From NCBI GenBank assembly GCA_944381205.1, contig CALWKG010000002.1, positions 20,464 through 84,463 of the forward strand: a stretch of 64,000 bases of DNA. The letters run 5' to 3'. The DNA is from an uncultured Clostridia bacterium. GTDB taxonomy: Bacteria; Bacillota; Clostridia; Christensenellales; UBA1242. Under the pieces are notes generated by a model, which did no database searches, was not told the origin of the DNA, and was given only the letters and a program-made list of their open reading frames with translations. Made by a program: the position numbers and the translations under genes. Shown piece after piece: positions 11,349-18,813 of the stretch; the first letter of the stretch is position 1; each line of letters opens with the position of its first letter.

Positions 11349-12267
11349 AGTTTATCTTCTCCTTAATAATATATGTTGGTCTGTTTCTTGTTTGGTCAAA
11401 AATATTTGCCAAATATAATCCCAGTACACCTATAAAAATACATATCAGTGAGGTCAATATGGTAAAGCAGGGGATAAGCCAAAAATAGTTTAAATTATGT
11501 GCAAAAATTTCTACAAAAGTAAAGGAAACAAAGGTAATTATGCTCAGTACAAAGAGCAAAATCCCCACATAAAAAGATATATAAAGGGGAGTTTTTGTTG
11601 TATTTACAATCATATTTTTTGCCGTTAAAAACATCTTTTTATAATTGTATTTTGTTTTGCCAAATTCTCGTTTTTGCCTATCTGTTAAAAGGGTTTTAGT
11701 CTTAAAACCAACGTATAAAATTTGGGATTTTATATTAATATTAGTGTCGTTTAAAGATAAAATTGCATCAACCACCTTTCTGTCAAACAAATAAAAACTA
11801 GCCAAATTGTCCAAATGTTTTACTCCTAGTTTTCGTAAGGTTTTATAAAACATAGATGCTGTCAATTTTTTTAGAAATTTATCTTTTCGTTCTCGCCTTT
11901 TTAGTAGTACAATGTCTATGTCGTTATTATCCCATTCATTTAGCATATTTATTATGTTCTGTTCGCTTTCCTGCATATCGATGTCAAGGCTTATACAACA
12001 ATTACCATTTGAATACTTTAATCCAGCCAGTATAGCGTTATCCTGCCCAAAATTTCGTGAAAGGCTTAAAAGTTTAACATTTTTATTAGTATTGCATAAG
12101 GTTTTTACTTTTTCTTCGCTATCATCTGTTGACCCATCGCTTACGAAAATTATCTCATAGTCATATTTTGTCTTTTGCATAACATCAGATAATTTGTTAA
12201 ATGCCATAAAGATATTTTCACTTTCGTTTAAAATGGGTAGAATTATTGATACAAGTTTTTTACTCAT
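11338..12267 (-). CDS. GT2 polyprenyl-phosphate glycosyltransferase (CsbB/GtrB-like)
   Basis: VSIILPILNESENI and FVSDGSTDDS are GT-A motifs. Two C-terminal TM helices are present. It is translationally coupled to yfhO, as in the Bacillus csbB-yfhO pairing. Confidence 0.8.
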   Translation of the reverse strand: MSKKLVSIILPILNESENIFMAFNKLSDVMQKTKYDYEIIFVSDGSTDDSEEKVKTLCNTNKNVKLLSLSRNFGQDNAILAGLKYSNGNCCISLDIDMQESEQNIINMLNEWDNNDIDIVLLKRRERKDKFLKKLTASMFYKTLRKLGVKHLDNLASFYLFDRKVVDAILSLNDTNINIKSQILYVGFKTKTLLTDRQKREFGKTKYNYKKMFLTAKNMIVNTTKTPLYISFYVGILLFVLSIITFVSFTFVEIFAHNLNYFWLIPCFTILTSLICIFIGVLGLYLANIFDQTRNRPTYIIKEKINFED

Positions 12268-12528
12268 AATTTTTTCCTTAACTTTTTATTGTATTATTTC
12301 AAAAAAAGATTAATTTTACAAAAAAATAATTAATGTTAAATTGCGTAGATACAAAAAAATATTTCATTGTAAAAAATTGTTGTAAATAGTAACGTGACTT
12401 TCTTTAATAAGTTAAGTATAAGTTAATAGTAAATTATTGTCAATTTTATATGATACTTATTGTAAGTTTATGTTTGACAAATTTTAAAATTAAATTTATT
12501 CTATTCTTGTTGTTTGCGGAGGATATAA

Positions 12529-12972
12529 ATGGACTTTACAAAACAAATGCTAAATGAAATTCTTGTAAAACTATTCAATGCTGTTTTGTTTAGTGAAGAA
12601 GATTTTTTAAAGAAGAATATAAACGATAAAATAACATTAAAAAGTGTTCACGTTTTAGAAGCAATTAAAAAGGCGGAAGGTAAAGATAATAATGTTTCTA
12701 TGAGCCAAATTGCAAGTGTACTGGGAATCACCGCGGGGACATTAACCACGATGATAAAAAAACTAGAAGACAAGGATTATATTGTAAAAAGACAATCAAA
12801 AGATGATAAAAGAAAAACCTTTGTTGTACTCACTAAAAAGGCAGAAAAAGTCATAGATGTTCATAATAGTTATCACGAAAATATGATTGATATGATAACT
12901 CGCAACCTTAGCCCAAAGGAAGAACAGAGTTTAGTAGATTTGTTGTCTAAAATTAAATACTTTTTTATGTAA
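12529..12972 (+). CDS. MarR family transcriptional regulator
   Basis: 147 aa. The winged-helix region SMSQIASVLGITAGTLTTMIKKLEDKDYIVKRQSKDDKRKTFVVLTKKAEK is present. GGAGG SD. Confidence 0.8.
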   Translation: MDFTKQMLNEILVKLFNAVLFSEEDFLKKNINDKITLKSVHVLEAIKKAEGKDNNVSMSQIASVLGITAGTLTTMIKKLEDKDYIVKRQSKDDKRKTFVVLTKKAEKVIDVHNSYHENMIDMITRNLSPKEEQSLVDLLSKIKYFFM

Positions 12973-12994
12973 AAATTACAATTAATTCTAAAAT

Positions 12995-13042
12995 AGTTTG
13001 ATAATCAAAATAATTTTAAAAAAATAGTTTGACTATCAAACT
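12995..13042 (+). promoter_or_regulatory. two copies of a 17-bp palindrome (AGTTTGA-N3-TCAAA[A/C]T) between marR and degV
   Basis: Copies at 12995-13011 and 13026-13042, both preceded by AAAAT, with centres 31 bp apart. The second copy is followed by T8, so it could also act as the marR terminator. Confidence 0.5.
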
Positions 13043-13085
13043 TTTTTTTGATATAACTATTGCGGTAAAAAAGGAAAATGATAAT

Positions 13086-13958
13086 ATGAAAATAGCAATA
13101 GTTACAGATACTAATAGCGGGATTACCCCAGAAGAAGCAAAAAAATTAGATATAAAGGTTATCCCTATGCCGTTTCTAATTGATGGCGAAGAATTTTTTG
13201 AAGACGTTAACTTAAATCAGGAGCAATTTTATGAAAAATTACTTAAAGGGGCAGATGTGTCTACTAGTCAGCCTAGTATTGCAGGGGTAACACAAGTTTG
13301 GAAGGATTTATTAAAGGATTACGATGCGGTACTTCATATTCCTATGAGTAGTGGTCTTTCTGCTAGTTGTGAAACGGCACAAAGTTTTGCCAAAGAGTTT
13401 GGTGGTAGGGTGCAGGTGGTAGATAATAAACGTATTTCTGTTACACTTAAACGCGCTGTTTATGATGCTATTAACTTAATAAAACAAGGTAAAACGGCGG
13501 AAGAAATTAAGCAAATATTAGAAGAAACCGGTAAAAATTCTACCATATATATTATGCTTTCCACCTTAAAATATCTTAAAAAGGGTGGAAGGATAACCCC
13601 AGCCGCAGCATTGCTTGGTAAAGTACTTGGGATAAAACCAGTGCTACAAATACAAGGGGCAAAGTTGGATAAATTTGCACAAGTTTTAAGTTTTGCCCAA
13701 GGTAGAAAAAAAATGATTGACCAAACAATCAAAGATATTACTACCAGATTTAAAGATTTGTACGAAAATAAACAATTAGAGGTTGAAATGGCTTATACCT
13801 ATGATAAGGATAAAATAGAAACATTCAGACAAGAAGCCAATAAAGCACTAAAAAAATATGATTTACAAGTCAAGGAAGTAGACCCACTTAGTTTATCAAT
13901 TTCTTGCCATATAGGTGAAGGCGCTATTGCTATTGCAGTAACCCAAGTTATAGAATAA
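13086..13958 (+). CDS. DegV family fatty-acid-binding protein (FakB-like)
   Basis: MKIAIVTDTNSGITPEEAKKLDI, STSQPS and YLKKGGRI match DegV. ATG 13086 has AAGGAA upstream. The track start TTG 13029 lies inside the palindrome/terminator and is unlikely. Confidence 0.85.
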   Translation: MKIAIVTDTNSGITPEEAKKLDIKVIPMPFLIDGEEFFEDVNLNQEQFYEKLLKGADVSTSQPSIAGVTQVWKDLLKDYDAVLHIPMSSGLSASCETAQSFAKEFGGRVQVVDNKRISVTLKRAVYDAINLIKQGKTAEEIKQILEETGKNSTIYIMLSTLKYLKKGGRITPAAALLGKVLGIKPVLQIQGAKLDKFAQVLSFAQGRKKMIDQTIKDITTRFKDLYENKQLEVEMAYTYDKDKIETFRQEANKALKKYDLQVKEVDPLSLSISCHIGEGAIAIAVTQVIE

Positions 13959-14147
13959 AATTGGGTGTTTTTTATAAAATCAAACAAAATCTTCTGTAAA
14001 AAAATATTTATCTCTGATAAAGAGATAAAGTAGTTAAGCAAAACAAATATAATTTCTATCAAATTCGGTCCGATTCCATTTTATATTATCTAAGGTATAA
14101 ATAAAGTTTTAGTTGCAATAAATTGATATAAGTAAAAAATTAAATAG

Positions 14148-14198
14148 ATAGTTTTTAAAAAATCCACACAGTAAAGGCTAACACTTTTGAAACTAGCG
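14148..14198 (+). repeat. left arm of the inverted repeat
   Basis: ATAGTTTTTAAAAAATCCACACA-gtaaag-GCTAACACTTTTGAAACTAGCG. Confidence 0.8.
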
Positions 14199-14230
14199 AA
14201 AAAGACTAAGTAAAAAACTTAGTCTTTTTT
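14199..14230. terminator. hairpin + T-run between the left repeat arm and the HNH stop codon
   Basis: AAAGACTAAG-TAAAAAA-CTTAGTCTTT with flanking A and T runs, so it is usable on either strand. Confidence 0.7.
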
Positions 14231-14235
14231 ATAAA

Positions 14236-15051
14236 TTAATATGAATCACCTTTATTTTTGTTACATCTCCTACAAAGCGTTTGTAAATTATCATATGTGC
14301 TTTTCCCGCCTTTTGCGATAGGTTTTATATGATCAATTTCCAAATAATCAGCATCTTCACTTCTTCCACAATAACAACATCTATAACCATCTCTTTTATA
14401 AATGGCGAATCTCATTTTATTTGAAACCCTTCCTCTTTCAACTCTACATAATGCATCCCAAATTCCTTTATCATTATAAAATTCATAATTTTTATTATTT
14501 AATCGTTTTATTAATGTTTCAACTTCTTCTGTTGTAAAGATTTGTTCTTTTTTAGCATAAATATATCCATTAATTTTTGAACAATATAAAACAATCTGTA
14601 TATATAGAACTCTTTTGGGATTTAATACTTTTTGCTTAAATAGTTTCTTTTCTAGTTTTAGTAAATATTCCACATTTAATTTTTCTTCATCTTTATATTT
14701 GCCAAAATCACTTATTTTTGTTAACTCATTAATATATTTTTCATACAAAGTGATGTTATACTTAATGCTTTTTATTGCATTTTCTATTTCAAATTTTTTG
14801 AATTGTAATTGATATATAAGGTAATCTTCGCAAGAAATATTATTAAAAAATGTTTCATTATCATATGTGTGGGTGTCAAAAAAGTCATTTGATATATTAA
14901 CAAATTTAAAATTATCATTTAATTTTAATAATTTGTTTAAAGCAAAACTATTATTTAAAAGGTATCTAATGTATTTACTTTGTCTAACTTTGAATATGAT
15001 GAAAATTGTACTAACAATTAACACTAATCCTAAAAATATAAAAATTTCCAC
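14236..15051 (-). CDS. membrane-anchored HNH (His-Me finger) endonuclease
   Basis: 271 aa, GTG start with AAAGGAGAG SD. N-terminal TM helix IFIFLGLVLIVSTIFIIF. The C-terminus YRCCYCGRSEDADYLEIDHIKPIAKGGKSTYDNLQTLCRRCNKNKG is a canonical HNH motif. Confidence 0.8.
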   Translation of the reverse strand: MEIFIFLGLVLIVSTIFIIFKVRQSKYIRYLLNNSFALNKLLKLNDNFKFVNISNDFFDTHTYDNETFFNNISCEDYLIYQLQFKKFEIENAIKSIKYNITLYEKYINELTKISDFGKYKDEEKLNVEYLLKLEKKLFKQKVLNPKRVLYIQIVLYCSKINGYIYAKKEQIFTTEEVETLIKRLNNKNYEFYNDKGIWDALCRVERGRVSNKMRFAIYKRDGYRCCYCGRSEDADYLEIDHIKPIAKGGKSTYDNLQTLCRRCNKNKGDSY

Positions 15052-15073
15052 AAATCTCTCCTTTAACAGAAAT

Positions 15074-15082
15074 ATTATAGCA
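15074..15082 (-). promoter_or_regulatory. extended -10 (TGCTATAAT) for the HNH gene
   Basis: The reverse complement of 15074-15082 reads TGCTATAAT, about 25 nt upstream of the GTG. The -35 is only weak (TTCAAC, 19-nt spacer). Confidence 0.45.
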
Positions 15083-15140
15083 CATATTTTATAAAAAAGT
15101 TGAAAATATACAAAAATTTCTAAAAAATATTAAATGGCAT

Positions 15141-15478
15141 TTAAACGTGCGCTTGTCTTGATACAAGTGCTGTCGCTTCAATCCAGCAGACAAGCACACG
15201 CAAATAATCTAATTGTGTTGCAAAAAGAGCGGTTGCTGGCATGGCGTAACGCAATCCGCTCTTTTGCTTTTTTATTTTCTTCTCTCTATTTTCTAGTGTA
15301 AGCGAATATTCTTTGTTGTCAAGGTTAAAGTGCATGTCAAAAGATTTGTAGATGTTGTGTTTCTTACGACAACCTATGACAACGGCAGAGATATTCGCTT
15401 TATTTTGCAGTTAAGAGAGAGTTAGGAGAAAAAAGAAAACATAGTCAGTTTTTCGTCTATGTTTCTCTTTATTTATTC
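15141..15478. ncRNA. unassigned GC-enriched, heavily base-paired non-coding segment (candidate structured RNA; strand unresolved)
   Basis: Complementary pairs: 15146-15158/15188-15200 (12 of 13 bp), 15225-15232/15256-15263 (8 bp, T-rich tail), 15281-15287/15414-15420 (TCTCTCT/AGAGAGA), 15301-15309/15391-15399 (9 bp), 15437-15444/15457-15464. My hand count gives about 45% G+C for 15141-15240, against an AT-rich background. Confidence 0.35.
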
Positions 15479-15532
15479 CGCTAGTTTCAAAAGTTAGCGA
15501 TTAAAATGTGTGGATTTTTTTAAAAAAACTAT
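15479..15532 (-). repeat. right arm of the inverted repeat
   Basis: The reverse complement reads ATAGTTTTTTTAAAAAAATCCACACA-ttttaatc-GCTAACTTTTGAAACTAGCG. Confidence 0.8.
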
Positions 15533-15549
15533 AAAAAAACTATAAAATT

Positions 15550-17259
15550 TTACATTTTTTCTAGTGGTTTTATTGCAAGTAAATCAAATATCTTTTGTAA
15601 AATGTTTATAACAAAAATAGTTTGTTTATACATGGAGTATTTTTTATTTAGATTTTTTTCGCCAATAATACTTGTTTTAGTATAAAAACTATTAAAATCG
15701 TTTGCTAGTGTGTAAGCATAGTCGCACAAGATATTTGGGCTTAGTTGTTTATAAGATTCTATAACCATATTGCAGAAATTTATTAGGGTTAAAAGTAGTT
15801 TTTTATCGCATAAACTTGCATCAAAAGCCCCGTCGATAGTTCCTACCTTTCGTATAATAGATTTTGCTCTTGTTAATGTGTATAAAAGATAAGGGCCGGT
15901 TTTTCCTTCAAAGGAGCAAAACTTGTCTGGGTCAAAGACGTAATCTTTTGTGCGCAGTATTGATAAATCTGCAAACTTTAATGCTGAAATTGCAACCGCA
16001 TCTAAAACGTCATTGTCAGTCGATTTTTGGGAAGCGGAAGATTTTACTTCGTTTATTAAATCTTCTAATTTCATAACTCCGCCATCACGTGTTTTGTAGG
16101 GTTTGCCATCTTTACCGTTCATTGTGCCAAAGCCTGCAAATGTCAATTCCATACTTTCTGGTACTAGGTGGTATTTTTTTGCAACTCTAAATAAAGAAAC
16201 AAAGTGAAGTTCTTGTCTATTATCTACAACATATATAACCTTTTGAGCATTATATTTTTTGTATCTATCAATTAATGTTGCTAAATCGGTAGTAGAGTAT
16301 AAAACACTGCCATCAGATTTTTTTAGCATAAATGGTGGAATTTCTTTTGTATCAGTGTCTTCCTTTATATCTACAATTAAAGCCCCTTCACTTTCGTATG
16401 CGTAATTGTTTTTTACAAAAAAATTAATCACATCGTCATAACTACCCCTTGTGTCACTCTCGCCCAACCACAAGTCAAAGTGGACATTTAGTTGATTATA
16501 GTTCTTTTTTAAATCTGCCACAGAAACATCTAAAATGTGTTTCCAAAGAGCAAAGTACCCTCTGTGCCCGTGCTGTAAATCATAGGTGATTTGTTTTGCT
16601 TCCTTCATATAATCTTCATTTTCTTTGGCTCGTTTGCTGGCTTGCGGGTAAAGGGTTTCTAAATCTTTTATTGTTACAGGAGATTGTTTTGGGTATTCGC
16701 CTGTATAGTTTTCGGCAAAATAGGGAAGGTCAGGGTGAAGTCTTTTTATTTCGCTAATTACCATTCCCATTTGAAGCCCCCAATCTCCTAGGTGAACATC
16801 TCCTAAGGTGTCACAGCCAACATATTTACAAATTCTCTTTATGCTTTCACCTATATTTGCGCTTCTTAAATGTCCTACGTGTAGGGGTTTTGCCACATTT
16901 GCTCCGCCATAGTCAACTATTATTTTTTTACTCTCCACATTTTTTTTTACAATGTTGTCGACTTCTTCTATGTATTTTGGGACATAATCAGACAAGAATT
17001 TGTCATCTAAAACTATGTTTATATACCCTCCGGTTATACTTGCCGATTTTATTGCCTTATTTTGCAAAAAGGATATGATTTCACTAGCGATTTCAAAAGG
17101 TTTTTTGTGATAAATTTTGGCTAATTTCATAGCATCTACACATTGATAGTCCCCCATACTTTCTATTGCGCAAGGTGTTGCTGTAAGGGTTTCATTATAT
17201 CCTGCCTGTTTAGAAGCAATTGTTAATGCTTGTGATAAAATATTTGATATGGTTTGCAT
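15550..17259 (-). CDS. argS: arginine--tRNA ligase
   Basis: 569 aa. ANVAKPLHVGHLRS is the HIGH motif. Overall ArgRS layout with a C-terminal anticodon-binding (DALR-type) region. The SD AGGAG overlaps the stop codon of the upstream permease gene. Confidence 0.9.
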   Translation of the reverse strand: MQTISNILSQALTIASKQAGYNETLTATPCAIESMGDYQCVDAMKLAKIYHKKPFEIASEIISFLQNKAIKSASITGGYINIVLDDKFLSDYVPKYIEEVDNIVKKNVESKKIIVDYGGANVAKPLHVGHLRSANIGESIKRICKYVGCDTLGDVHLGDWGLQMGMVISEIKRLHPDLPYFAENYTGEYPKQSPVTIKDLETLYPQASKRAKENEDYMKEAKQITYDLQHGHRGYFALWKHILDVSVADLKKNYNQLNVHFDLWLGESDTRGSYDDVINFFVKNNYAYESEGALIVDIKEDTDTKEIPPFMLKKSDGSVLYSTTDLATLIDRYKKYNAQKVIYVVDNRQELHFVSLFRVAKKYHLVPESMELTFAGFGTMNGKDGKPYKTRDGGVMKLEDLINEVKSSASQKSTDNDVLDAVAISALKFADLSILRTKDYVFDPDKFCSFEGKTGPYLLYTLTRAKSIIRKVGTIDGAFDASLCDKKLLLTLINFCNMVIESYKQLSPNILCDYAYTLANDFNSFYTKTSIIGEKNLNKKYSMYKQTIFVINILQKIFDLLAIKPLEKM

Positions 17260-17268
17260 AAAAATCTC

Positions 17269-18813
17269 CTATAATATTCTAAACAATTTTACCCCTTTTG
17301 TGAATAAAATCAAGGAAAAGATTACAAAAAGTACAATTAAAAGAGCCAAAAACCCCAAACTTAATGGCAGTATTGGTAGTTCAAAAATTAAAAATAGCAT
17401 TACTGGCAATAAAGTTATAACAAGTCCAATCAGCAAAGTTAGTAATACTGACATACTTTGTTTTATCACCTTGGCTTCATCATCAAAATCTAGCATAGGG
17501 TGTCTTAGGTTGATGTAAAGTCCTAAAACAGACATAGTGAGAGTAAGCACTGTTGGGATAAGAATAAGCAAAACAGAAAAAATTATATTAAATTTAAAGT
17601 ATATGGATAAAAATATTCCCGCGATAACTATTGGGGTAAGAACTATAATGTTATGAAAAAGCAATTTTGATAAAAATATTGTCTTGATCTTTATTGGCAT
17701 AGATTTTAAAAACCATATACTTTTACCTTCTAGGGAAATGCTAACTGCCGATATTGTAGATGTGCAACTCATAAATGATATTACGATTGTACTTATTGCA
17801 AAGATATATGTTGTCACATCTCCTAGTGGGCTAAGCATTGCGGAAAGATTTAGATTAATCGATAGAATACAAAATATGATTATCATTACAGGACCCATTG
17901 ATGTATTTACAAGATAAGTTGGGGAAGAAAAATAATTATTAAATTCTTTTTTTAAAAGTAAATTTAATGGGGTGTTGTTTTGTTTAAATTTTAAATCTTT
18001 ATTTTTTGATTTATATGCTACAAATATTTTGCCGTAGTTCAAAGTAAATAGTAAGGTTCCTAACAAAAAGACTCCTAATGTTAGCACTAATGTTATTAAT
18101 ACGTTTTGTATGTTTGGGCTAAATAAATAATTTAAAAGAGTATTTGAAATTGGTTTTGTTTCAAAATAAGATTTAATCATGGTTTCGTCTAAAAAACCAT
18201 AGTTTACGGACACAATCATAATAAATACAAATACTATACCAAATAAAAACAGGGAAAATAAAGACTTAAAAACCCCAGCAAATCTAGTTTTATTAAAAAG
18301 TCTTGATATAATAAAATCTAGTATATAAGTTAGTCCCACACTTAAAAGAGGTAAGAGTAAAATCAAAGTTACAGACATTAATATAAAGCCTATATTTATC
18401 CCGTAAGAAATCGAATAAATTACTACGTAAGGAACAAAGACTATGCAGGTAAAAAATAAGTCATATAAATATTTATTTAAGGTTTTTGATAAAATAATTA
18501 TGTATTTTTTTATAGGTAAAGATAGCAAAAAATCACTATCACTTGTTGGAGTGTTATTACTTGTGGCTCTTAAACACCCCAAAACAAAAAGGGTAACGAG
18601 AATGGTAAAAATTCCGTTAAAAATTGCAAATTGATTTCCTAAAAAACTAAAACTACTTATTGTAGAGTAAGCATTGTATGAAAATACTGCAACAAGTAGA
18701 ACAATCATTATTGCAAAAGTAAGTAAACTTGACCTACTTTTACCCCGTCTTTGAGTTACACTACCAATCATCATATTAAAACTGTTTTTTAAAAGTATCC
18801 AAAGGTTACGCAT
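17269..18813 (-). CDS. ABC transporter permease (polytopic, exporter-like)
   Basis: 514 aa, hydrophobic throughout with more than 10 predicted TM stretches. Its ATG overlaps the ATPase stop (ATGCGTAA). Confidence 0.65.
   Translation of the reverse strand: MRNLWILLKNSFNMMIGSVTQRRGKSRSSLLTFAIMIVLLVAVFSYNAYSTISSFSFLGNQFAIFNGIFTILVTLFVLGCLRATSNNTPTSDSDFLLSLPIKKYIIILSKTLNKYLYDLFFTCIVFVPYVVIYSISYGINIGFILMSVTLILLLPLLSVGLTYILDFIISRLFNKTRFAGVFKSLFSLFLFGIVFVFIMIVSVNYGFLDETMIKSYFETKPISNTLLNYLFSPNIQNVLITLVLTLGVFLLGTLLFTLNYGKIFVAYKSKNKDLKFKQNNTPLNLLLKKEFNNYFSSPTYLVNTSMGPVMIIIFCILSINLNLSAMLSPLGDVTTYIFAISTIVISFMSCTSTISAVSISLEGKSIWFLKSMPIKIKTIFLSKLLFHNIIVLTPIVIAGIFLSIYFKFNIIFSVLLILIPTVLTLTMSVLGLYINLRHPMLDFDDEAKVIKQSMSVLLTLLIGLVITLLPVMLFLIFELPILPLSLGFLALLIVLFVIFSLILFTKGVKLFRIL

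Follow-up and report, generated by a model that had tools for sequence, protein, structure and literature searches.

What is the block of ca. 1.3 kb that lies between degV and argS in the 998,863-bp genome (32.9% G+C) of an uncultured Clostridia bacterium, and how did it come to be there? We addressed this question in a stretch of 64,000 nucleotides (nt) from that genome (contig CALWKG010000002.1; here, the window), in which the block proper, referred to below as the cassette, occupies positions 14171 to 15506. An earlier note on the same DNA had described a separate cassette with inverted repeats at its borders and no mobility enzyme of its own, in which a gene for a membrane-anchored HNH nuclease adjoins a structured noncoding segment. 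That description holds: the cassette is inserted relative to the closest relative and is found again in a second genome, at a different locus. The interpretation that we favor, with moderate confidence, is that it is a nonautonomous member of a group of serine-recombinase/Rep integrative elements of gut Clostridia, that it originated by attP × attB recombination at a terminator, and that its structured DNA consists of cis-acting sites.

The cassette is an insertion relative to the closest relative

In the closest relative, genome G018 (ArgS 77% identical), the gene order marR-degV-argS is kept, and the gap between degV and argS measures ca. 145 nt, versus 1,591 nt in the window, with an intact terminator (A7-GGCTAAA-loop-TTTAGCC-T4). 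The window cassette is an insertion relative to this genome. An HNH gene 95% identical to that of the window was found in another assembly (L241) among unrelated neighbors; its cassette shares the left end (End-1) exactly; the outer flank differs (CCGCTCGC-T6), and the right side, that of End-2, is truncated. Homologues at 81%, 70%, and 59% identity lie in three further unrelated neighborhoods, each with an end module, hairpins, a TGnTATAAT promoter, and an inverted end downstream. The earlier note had named multiple copies and an empty degV-argS junction in relatives as the things to look for, and both turned up, the former as end pairs at many loci and the latter as the uninterrupted G018 site.

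A separate observation concerns locus L054, where two direct repeats of the 3′ part of a tRNA gene, together with a terminator-like hairpin, stand behind that gene and just upstream of another HNH cassette (L054:2950-3460, in the context of HNH homologue P0011). These repeats suggest repeated integration events at the tRNA end.

Both ends lie in a split terminator

The arms claimed by the earlier note were recovered by a repeat search as inverted repeats at 14152-14215 and 15462-15525 (64 nt, 73% complementary), and the hairpins with inward T-runs that it had placed directly inside them can be read from the sequence (Table 1). The 14-mer TTTTGAAACTAGCG occurs as two exact copies in the window, one per arm, and no further exact copy was found in the window or in the whole genome. 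Around the cassette, the window reads AAAAAA-TCCACACA, then positions 14171 to 15506, and then TGTGTGGA-TTTTTTT. The same arrangement holds wherever the flanks could be matched, in 29 scored cassettes including that of the window: an A-run and 4 to 8 nt stand outside the left end, and the exact reverse complement followed by a T-run stands outside the right end. These paired outer flanks are the two halves of a bidirectional intrinsic terminator. Given this rule, the outer sequence of each arm can be assigned to a host terminator and the inner part to an element end, and the arms read as composites of a split host terminator half and a cassette end that closes with TTTTGAAACTAGCG. No direct target-site duplication is evident, and 0 to 4 loop nt remain on either side. 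The consensus of the two ends is asymmetric, with (T)AAGGGCTATAAA-TTTTGAAACTAG for End-1 and TTTAGTCACTAAC-TTTTGAAACTAGCRGAATAA for End-2 (inner part also given as TTTTGAAACTAGC), and in the cassettes compared, the structured element always adjoins End-2.

This composite structure bears on a more mundane alternative raised in the earlier note, that the arms are the 3′ untranslated regions (UTRs) and terminators of degV and argS. It was right for the outer halves, which are halves of the degV/argS terminator, and wrong for the inner halves, which are element ends. Taken as a full explanation, in which there is no mobile element, the arms are conserved terminator/3′ UTR modules, and the HNH gene is an ordinary resident, it would also agree with the presence of the block in every same-species contig found (those with identical ArgS). 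However, the block is missing at the syntenic site of G018, the same ends enclose unrelated genes at many loci, and a near-identical cassette occupies another locus, so that we assign this explanation a negligible probability.

A family of cassettes with diverse cargo

More than 119 stretches of species genomes contain the 20-mer TTTTGAAACTAGCRGAATAA, and almost all of these belong to uncultured Clostridia/Christensenella-like metagenome-assembled genomes (MAGs). Within the genus, the exact 14-mer occurs 0 to 9 times per genome, and its control never does. The loci examined contained 72 inverted pairs of end modules, ca. 24 of them at a spacing of 71 to 86 nt and ca. 48 enclosing 0.7 to 5.9 kb with one to four open reading frames (ORFs). 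Cargo is very heterogeneous, since 62 proteins fell into 54 clusters. These include short-chain dehydrogenases/reductases, hydrolases, NUDIX proteins, HaeIII and Eco47II restriction-modification systems, GmrSD/HEC-06-like proteins, a tubulin/FtsZ-like trio, histidine phosphatases, a nicotinamide mononucleotide transporter, and DUF4932; in G005, a different, homing-type HNH protein occupies the same slot. Given this diversity of cargo beside the structured element, the element is not tied to the HNH gene. A phage origin was rejected, because no viral contig contained the 20-mer. The end motif appears in no relevant paper, and topic literature searches gave no description of such elements.

Several further observations concern the same family. 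In the window's own genome, a single hairpin stands between two inverted end motifs (GTTTGAAACTAGCG and TTTTAAAACTAGCA), the whole spanning ca. 94 nt (C13:21106-21199); this is a "minimal" or empty form of the element and the only other copy in that genome. The same genome has a unit of three genes (for proteins of 82, 192, and 237 aa, the last FtsZ/tubulin-like; C2:123200-125400) that cassettes in G015 and another MAG carry as well. At the end of this unit stand an inverted end motif in degenerate form and a hairpin resembling hp4 (see below), with an IS200-type Y1 transposase inserted just downstream. A near-identical end-motif composite of ca. 200 nt (a 79-nt unit plus ATTATAGACAGATTAAATACTTTTGAAACAG...) occurs with different neighbor genes in at least 10 species-level MAGs (L070, L085, L093, L096, L097, L140, L153, L161, L168, and L187), which points to recent spread of a miniature form. 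Finally, L033 (G003:C1) and L046 (G015:C9) share one site, downstream of a YqeY/GatB-like gene, with GmrSD-like cargo in the former and the FtsZ-like trio in the latter; the cargo may have been exchanged, or one terminator may have served more than once.

Related islands encode a serine recombinase and a Rep protein

Inspection of the ORFs agreed with the earlier note that the cassette contains no transposase, integrase, or reverse transcriptase. It also lacks any ORF with the Resolvase, Recombinase, and Zn-ribbon recombinase domains, which were found only in the relatives L257, L258, L042, and L123. Two of these are complete islands, L257 (G009:C4, ca. 6 kb) and L258 (G007:C11, ca. 16.7 kb), whose ends sit in split terminators (A6-GCCC/GGGC-T8 and A5-CACCAC/GTGGTG-T6, respectively). 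The window cassette shares End-1, End-2, and the split A-run/T-run target with both, and its structured segment matches noncoding parts of such islands. Their order is End-1, cargo, hp1 (the first hairpin module of that segment), orf209, orf293, recombinase, hairpin, and End-2; the cargo of the G007 island is an AlwI restriction-modification system and a DEAD/MZB helicase. The product of orf209 is a 209-aa protein. That of orf293 is an HUH rolling-circle Rep of family PF23343, REP_ORF2-G2P (39.8 bits versus a cutoff of 27.8), with FTY, HFH, and YxxK motifs, and the third protein is a large serine recombinase (Resolvase, Recombinase, and Zn_ribbon_recom domains). The recombinase also lies beside End-2 in L042 and L123, and in G025:C5 the 3′ end of a gene for a 500-aa large serine recombinase is abutted by End-2 and a sister variant of the structured element. 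PF07508 is present in 18 of the 28 genus genomes, in at least eight cases 2 to 4 kb from a match to hp1 or the end module, and recombinase genes lie near hp1 in at least eight genomes. In the genome of the window, no homologue of the Rep or of orf209 was found, and its own recombinases are distant, at only 44% and 32% identity.

The inverted terminal repeats, the lack of an internal enzyme, and the many short forms of 71 to 86 nt would also suit a miniature inverted-repeat transposable element (MITE) or a mobile insertion cassette (MIC) whose transposase (DDE, Y1-HUH, or other) has its gene at another place, the serine recombinase of the islands then being cargo or a nested element. A Y1 transposase is indeed present in the window's genome and in 7 of the 28 genus genomes, but its presence does not follow the end-motif counts. 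The IS110 DEDD transposase (PF01548) occurs in none of the 28, no cognate DDE transposase was identified, target-site duplications are not evident, and the recombinase directly adjoins End-2 in four islands, an integrase-like placement. We therefore regard transposition by such an enzyme as improbable. Two specific candidates were rejected, IS110/IS1111 elements with a bridge/seek RNA for the absence of PF01548, and Y1 or REP-associated (RAYT) transposases because they do not track the end motif; the IS200 at C2:124.9 kb in the window's genome is a separate insertion.

Proposed recombination at terminator hairpins

Recombination between dyad-symmetric attP and attB sites is known behavior of large serine recombinases (phiC31, TnpX, and Ccr), and recombination on dyad sites accounts for both the inverted element ends and the inverted host flanks. 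In the mechanism that we propose, End-1 and End-2 would be joined on an excised circle into a dyad-symmetric attP of ca. 60 bp; for the window cassette, the expected joint has ...GTGTTAGCCTTTAC directly followed by TTTTAATCGCTAAC.... The attB would be a bidirectional intrinsic terminator with dyad symmetry (A-run, stem, loop, stem, and T-run), e.g., AAAAAATCCACACA-loop-TGTGTGGATTTTTTT, and the serine recombinase would act at the hairpin apex, leaving half a terminator on either side. The window copy would have retained both ends, the insulating terminator hairpins, the four structured modules hp1 to hp4, and a single self-promoted HNH cargo gene. Since Rep, the 209-aa gene, and the recombinase are all missing from it, it would move only by means of a helper element, of which there is none in its own genome. 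Observed directly are the insertion, the family with its common ends and split-terminator flanks, and the genes of the autonomous islands; the part of the serine recombinase in making the joints, the movement of small cassettes in trans, and the role of hp1 to hp3 as origins are inferred.

An HUH Rep implies a single-stranded DNA (ssDNA) stage with a double-strand and a single-strand origin. The structured modules would be the cis-acting DNA of this stage, namely, a double-strand origin plus a single-strand origin or ssDNA promoter. The hairpins hp1 and hp2 are positioned as a Rep origin would be, upstream of orf209 and rep, and hp3 would rebuild a promoter by intrastrand pairing, as in ssoA and Frpo.

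The structured noncoding segment

The earlier note had described highly paired noncoding DNA upstream of the HNH gene, and this is borne out by folding and covariation. The region 15135-15506 folds much better than shuffled versions (z of −5.85 and −5.44 for the two strands) and is found in many genus genomes at 70 to 91% identity, often in multiple copies across different contigs. An alignment of 18, and later 38, copies is sharply bounded and resolves into four hairpin modules, hp1 to hp4 (Table 1). In an 81-pair structure over the 38 homologous copies, 91.7% of the cells pair, with compensatory change at 31 of the 81 pairs; none of 500 shuffles reached the observed level, and slid controls paired at 38 to 49%. 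An Rfam search including HEARO gave no match at an E value of ≤1 on positions 12000 to 18000, and at the gathering score it detected only tRNAs in 13 related loci. A small ORF within the segment was rejected, as the ATG of the hp2 loop is not conserved.

In the autonomous islands, hp1 lies upstream of the orf209-Rep-recombinase genes and may serve as a Rep origin or in regulation. The 3′ arm of hp3 contains, on the minus strand, the promoter TTGACA-16-TACACT (15322 to 15295), which is the top promoter match and the most conserved block of the segment, with TTGACA nearly invariant among the 38 copies. We consider hp3 a candidate single-strand origin or ssDNA promoter. In rolling-circle plasmids, the landmarks of ssoA are recombination site B (RSB; TTATGCCGAGAAAATTT) and conserved sequence 6 (CS-6; TAGCGT) inside a long hairpin (PMC4598088), and in both ssoA and Frpo a hairpin rebuilds the promoter through intrastrand pairing (PMC4595007). 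More generally, the ssoA single-strand origins and Frpo ssDNA promoters of rolling-circle and conjugative plasmids (PMC4598088, PMC4595007, and PMC8860593) share with our segment a long imperfect hairpin with −35 and −10 boxes, a TAGCG(T)-like motif, and the association with an HUH Rep. The CS-6-like motif here is the TAGCG(G/T/A) of the end motif, and the sister variant has TTATGCCG(T/C)GAAAG, identical to the ssoA RSB at 15 of 17 positions. Apart from these resemblances, TGGCA-N(2-6)-(T/G)TAAC occurs twice in the window segment, at 15135-15139 (the end of hp1) and 15238-15251 (the conserved hp2 loop), and could be a repeated protein-binding site.

Could the 370-nt segment instead be mainly a transcribed RNA, that is, a small RNA or long leader that starts from TTGACA-16-TACACT and regulates the element or its cargo? 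Conservation of a sigma70-type promoter, strong covariation, the T-run that follows hp2 on the plus strand, and the excess of G·U over A·C on the strand of the promoter (the minus strand; 36 versus 9 in the RNAalifold pairs) all argue for it. On the other hand, hp3 pairs the −35 box and spacer of that very promoter, so that hp3 lies upstream of the start site and outside the transcript; Rfam gave no match; and the HUH Rep of the autonomous relatives requires origins on DNA. We judge the RNA alternative unlikely, if well worth keeping in view, and segments in these genomes that resemble novel large RNAs are probably cis-acting sites of elements.

Points that weigh against the proposed mechanism

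Several results are at odds with the serine-recombinase/Rep interpretation. Large serine recombinases usually recognize one defined attB, and here the stem sequence of the target varies freely among cassettes. No circular joint and no exact same-species empty site were found among same-species contigs or by searching metagenomes for the split-terminator pattern, which gave 46 matches, all unrelated. The recombinase or orf209 is present in just 4 of the 119 end-bearing stretches, and PF07508 is absent from 10 of the 28 genus genomes, including G002 with its seven end motifs. Given these few recombinase-bearing stretches and the genomes lacking PF07508, mobilization in trans stays something that we infer, and many cassettes may be dead relics. 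As to the origins, blastn of the structured segments against 72,556 plasmids returned nothing, the CS-6-like and RSB-like motifs are out of the canonical ssoA order and at noncanonical distances, and the window copy has TAGCGG/TAGCGA only, without the RSB match. The proposed likeness to ssoA and Frpo consists of short motifs that are leads, not proof. The strand call is weak as well, with 110 G·U versus 84 A·C when all pairs are counted.

The HNH cargo gene

The 271-aa protein with a transmembrane helix and an HNH motif proposed in the earlier note has a Pfam HNH domain at residues 225 to 269 (E value of 5e−16), and its AlphaFold2 model (pLDDT of 91) places an N-terminal helix, read as the transmembrane segment, at residues 2 to 34, followed by a K/R-rich sequence. 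By the positive-inside rule, the nuclease domain would be cytoplasmic. More than 1,000 full-length homologues were detected at an E value of ≤1e−5. Foldseek returned matches in the HNH part only (Gme HNH nickase, McrA, and Cas9 HNH) and no structural match for the N-terminal 200 aa. The extended −10 and strong Shine-Dalgarno (SD) sequence that had been noted ahead of the gene are in place (Table 1), and the same promoter/5′ UTR block also precedes other cargo genes (G003:C28, G019:C13, and G001:C171). The HNH protein is cargo, and its most plausible role is that of a membrane-tethered intracellular nuclease against incoming DNA.

The arrangement had reminded the author of the earlier note of HEARO/IscB and its omega RNA, and an HNH nuclease guided by the upstream structured RNA, as in OMEGA (obligate mobile element-guided activity) systems, has to be weighed. 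As in HEARO/IscB, a large structured noncoding segment precedes the HNH ORF; in the window, G005, and G033, the two are directly adjacent on one strand. In addition, IscB is the best NCBIfam match of the HNH domain. That match is confined to a generic HNH domain, however, and reaches 48 bits versus a cutoff of 175. The protein has no RuvC, PLMP, or bridge helix, and its N-terminal part is without structural match; HEARO was not found by Rfam. Furthermore, the segment is not HNH specific, as most copies have other cargo or none, and the variable flank is a split palindrome and not a guide. RNA guidance is thus very improbable, and the comparison made in the earlier note is not supported.

Table 1. 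Features of the cassette and its flanks in the window
Positions	Strand	Feature	Evidence
14148-14170	.	Left half of the split host bidirectional terminator (ATAGTTTTTAAAAAATCCACACA), proposed attB half	Reverse complement of 15507-15532; same flank type around 29 cassettes
14171-14198	+	Cassette End-1 (GTAAAGGCTAACAC-TTTTGAAACTAGCG), proposed att half-site	Fits End-1 consensus; identical End-1, with another outer flank, in L241
14199-14230	.	Hairpin with A-run and T-run; predicted bidirectional terminator closing the HNH gene and blocking degV read-through	Sequence reading; hairpin at the equivalent position in other cassettes
14236-15051	-	Cargo gene, 271-aa membrane-anchored HNH nuclease	Pfam HNH and HNH_5; AlphaFold2; Foldseek
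15052-15134	-	Promoter and 5′ UTR of the HNH gene	TGCTATAAT at 15074-15082(-); SD (AAAGGAGAG) at 15056-15064 ahead of the GTG start; sequence reading
15135-15210	.	hp1: TGGCA and long GC-rich hairpin (15146-15200)	Helices 8 and 9 covary, one pair being CG15/UA12/AU4
15220-15273	.	hp2: hairpin (15220-15267), then T-run on the plus strand; conserved loop TGGCAGAGCGTAAC	Helix 6, compensatory change at 8/15 pairs
15282-15421	.	hp3: long imperfect hairpin; sigma70-type promoter in the minus-strand 3′ arm	Helices 2 to 5 paired at 90 to 96%
15435-15465	-	hp4: terminator hairpin and T-run, predicted to end argS transcription	Sequence reading; helix 1 covaries (GC21/AU10 and AU26/UA8 at two pairs)
15479-15506	-	Cassette End-2 (TTTTAATCGCTAAC-TTTTGAAACTAGCG on the minus strand)	Fits End-2 consensus; same end type adjoins the serine recombinase in L257, L258, and L042
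15507-15532	.	Right half of the split host terminator (TGTGTGGATTTTTTTAAAAAAACTAT); distance to the argS stop codon, 17 nt	Reverse complement of 14148-14170; terminator intact there in G018

Relation to known systems and biological significance

The closest known systems are the Tn4451-type mobilizable transposons and the serine-recombinase integrative mobilizable elements (IMEs), together with enzyme-less derivatives such as cis-mobilizable elements (CIMEs) and MIC-like cassettes. Tn4451/Tn4453-type transposons and the serine-recombinase IMEs of Firmicutes combine a large serine recombinase (TnpX) with a Mob/Rep function. Like them, the present elements are small and integrative, with a large serine recombinase gene beside one end, an HUH-type DNA-processing protein, imperfect inverted ends, cargo, and an expected circular intermediate. 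In contrast, the present family targets terminator hairpins (A-run/T-run) at their apex, with the stem sequence left free, its second protein is a PF23343 Rep and not a Mob/Pre relaxase, most members are recombinase-less mini-cassettes, and there is no detectable DNA similarity to known plasmids. CIMEs and MICs such as MIC231 have no enzyme of their own, and their cargo lies between sites at which an autonomous element recombines or transposes. Our cassettes resemble them in lacking enzymes and in their presumed dependence on a helper, but their ends relate to a serine-recombinase/Rep element rather than to a tyrosine-integrase integrative and conjugative element or a DDE insertion sequence, and they also retain structured noncoding modules.

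With integron cassettes and their attC sites, the family shares mostly single-gene and very diverse cargo, palindromic folded recombination sites, and the lack of an internal enzyme. An assignment to integrons was nevertheless rejected: the cassettes are dispersed singly in terminators and not arrayed at attI, their two ends are inverted copies, they carry their own promoters and terminators, and the associated enzyme is a serine and not a tyrosine recombinase.

The family is thus distinguished by a terminator-apex target with a free stem, a PF23343 Rep, and a large population of mini-cassettes, and its recombinase-less members are now tied to a candidate set of enzymes. A broader proposal, tentative and with the balance somewhat against it, is that these elements have no fixed attB sequence but recognize intrinsic terminator hairpins by their shape and by the framing A- and T-tracts, which would offer them hundreds of safe sites per genome. 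They would have spawned helper-dependent, self-insulated, and self-promoted mini-cassettes that retain att ends and replication cis-sites, amounting to a dispersed, integron-like shuffling of genes in reduced gut Clostridia. If it is true that the recombinase accepts terminator hairpins with a free stem, it would be an unusual multitarget large serine recombinase, of interest for genome engineering. For the organisms themselves, the mechanism proposed here is a testable one by which single accessory and defense genes (HNH, restriction-modification, GmrSD, and hydrolases) may be exchanged among uncultured gut Clostridia with genomes of ca. 1 Mb and no visible transposases.

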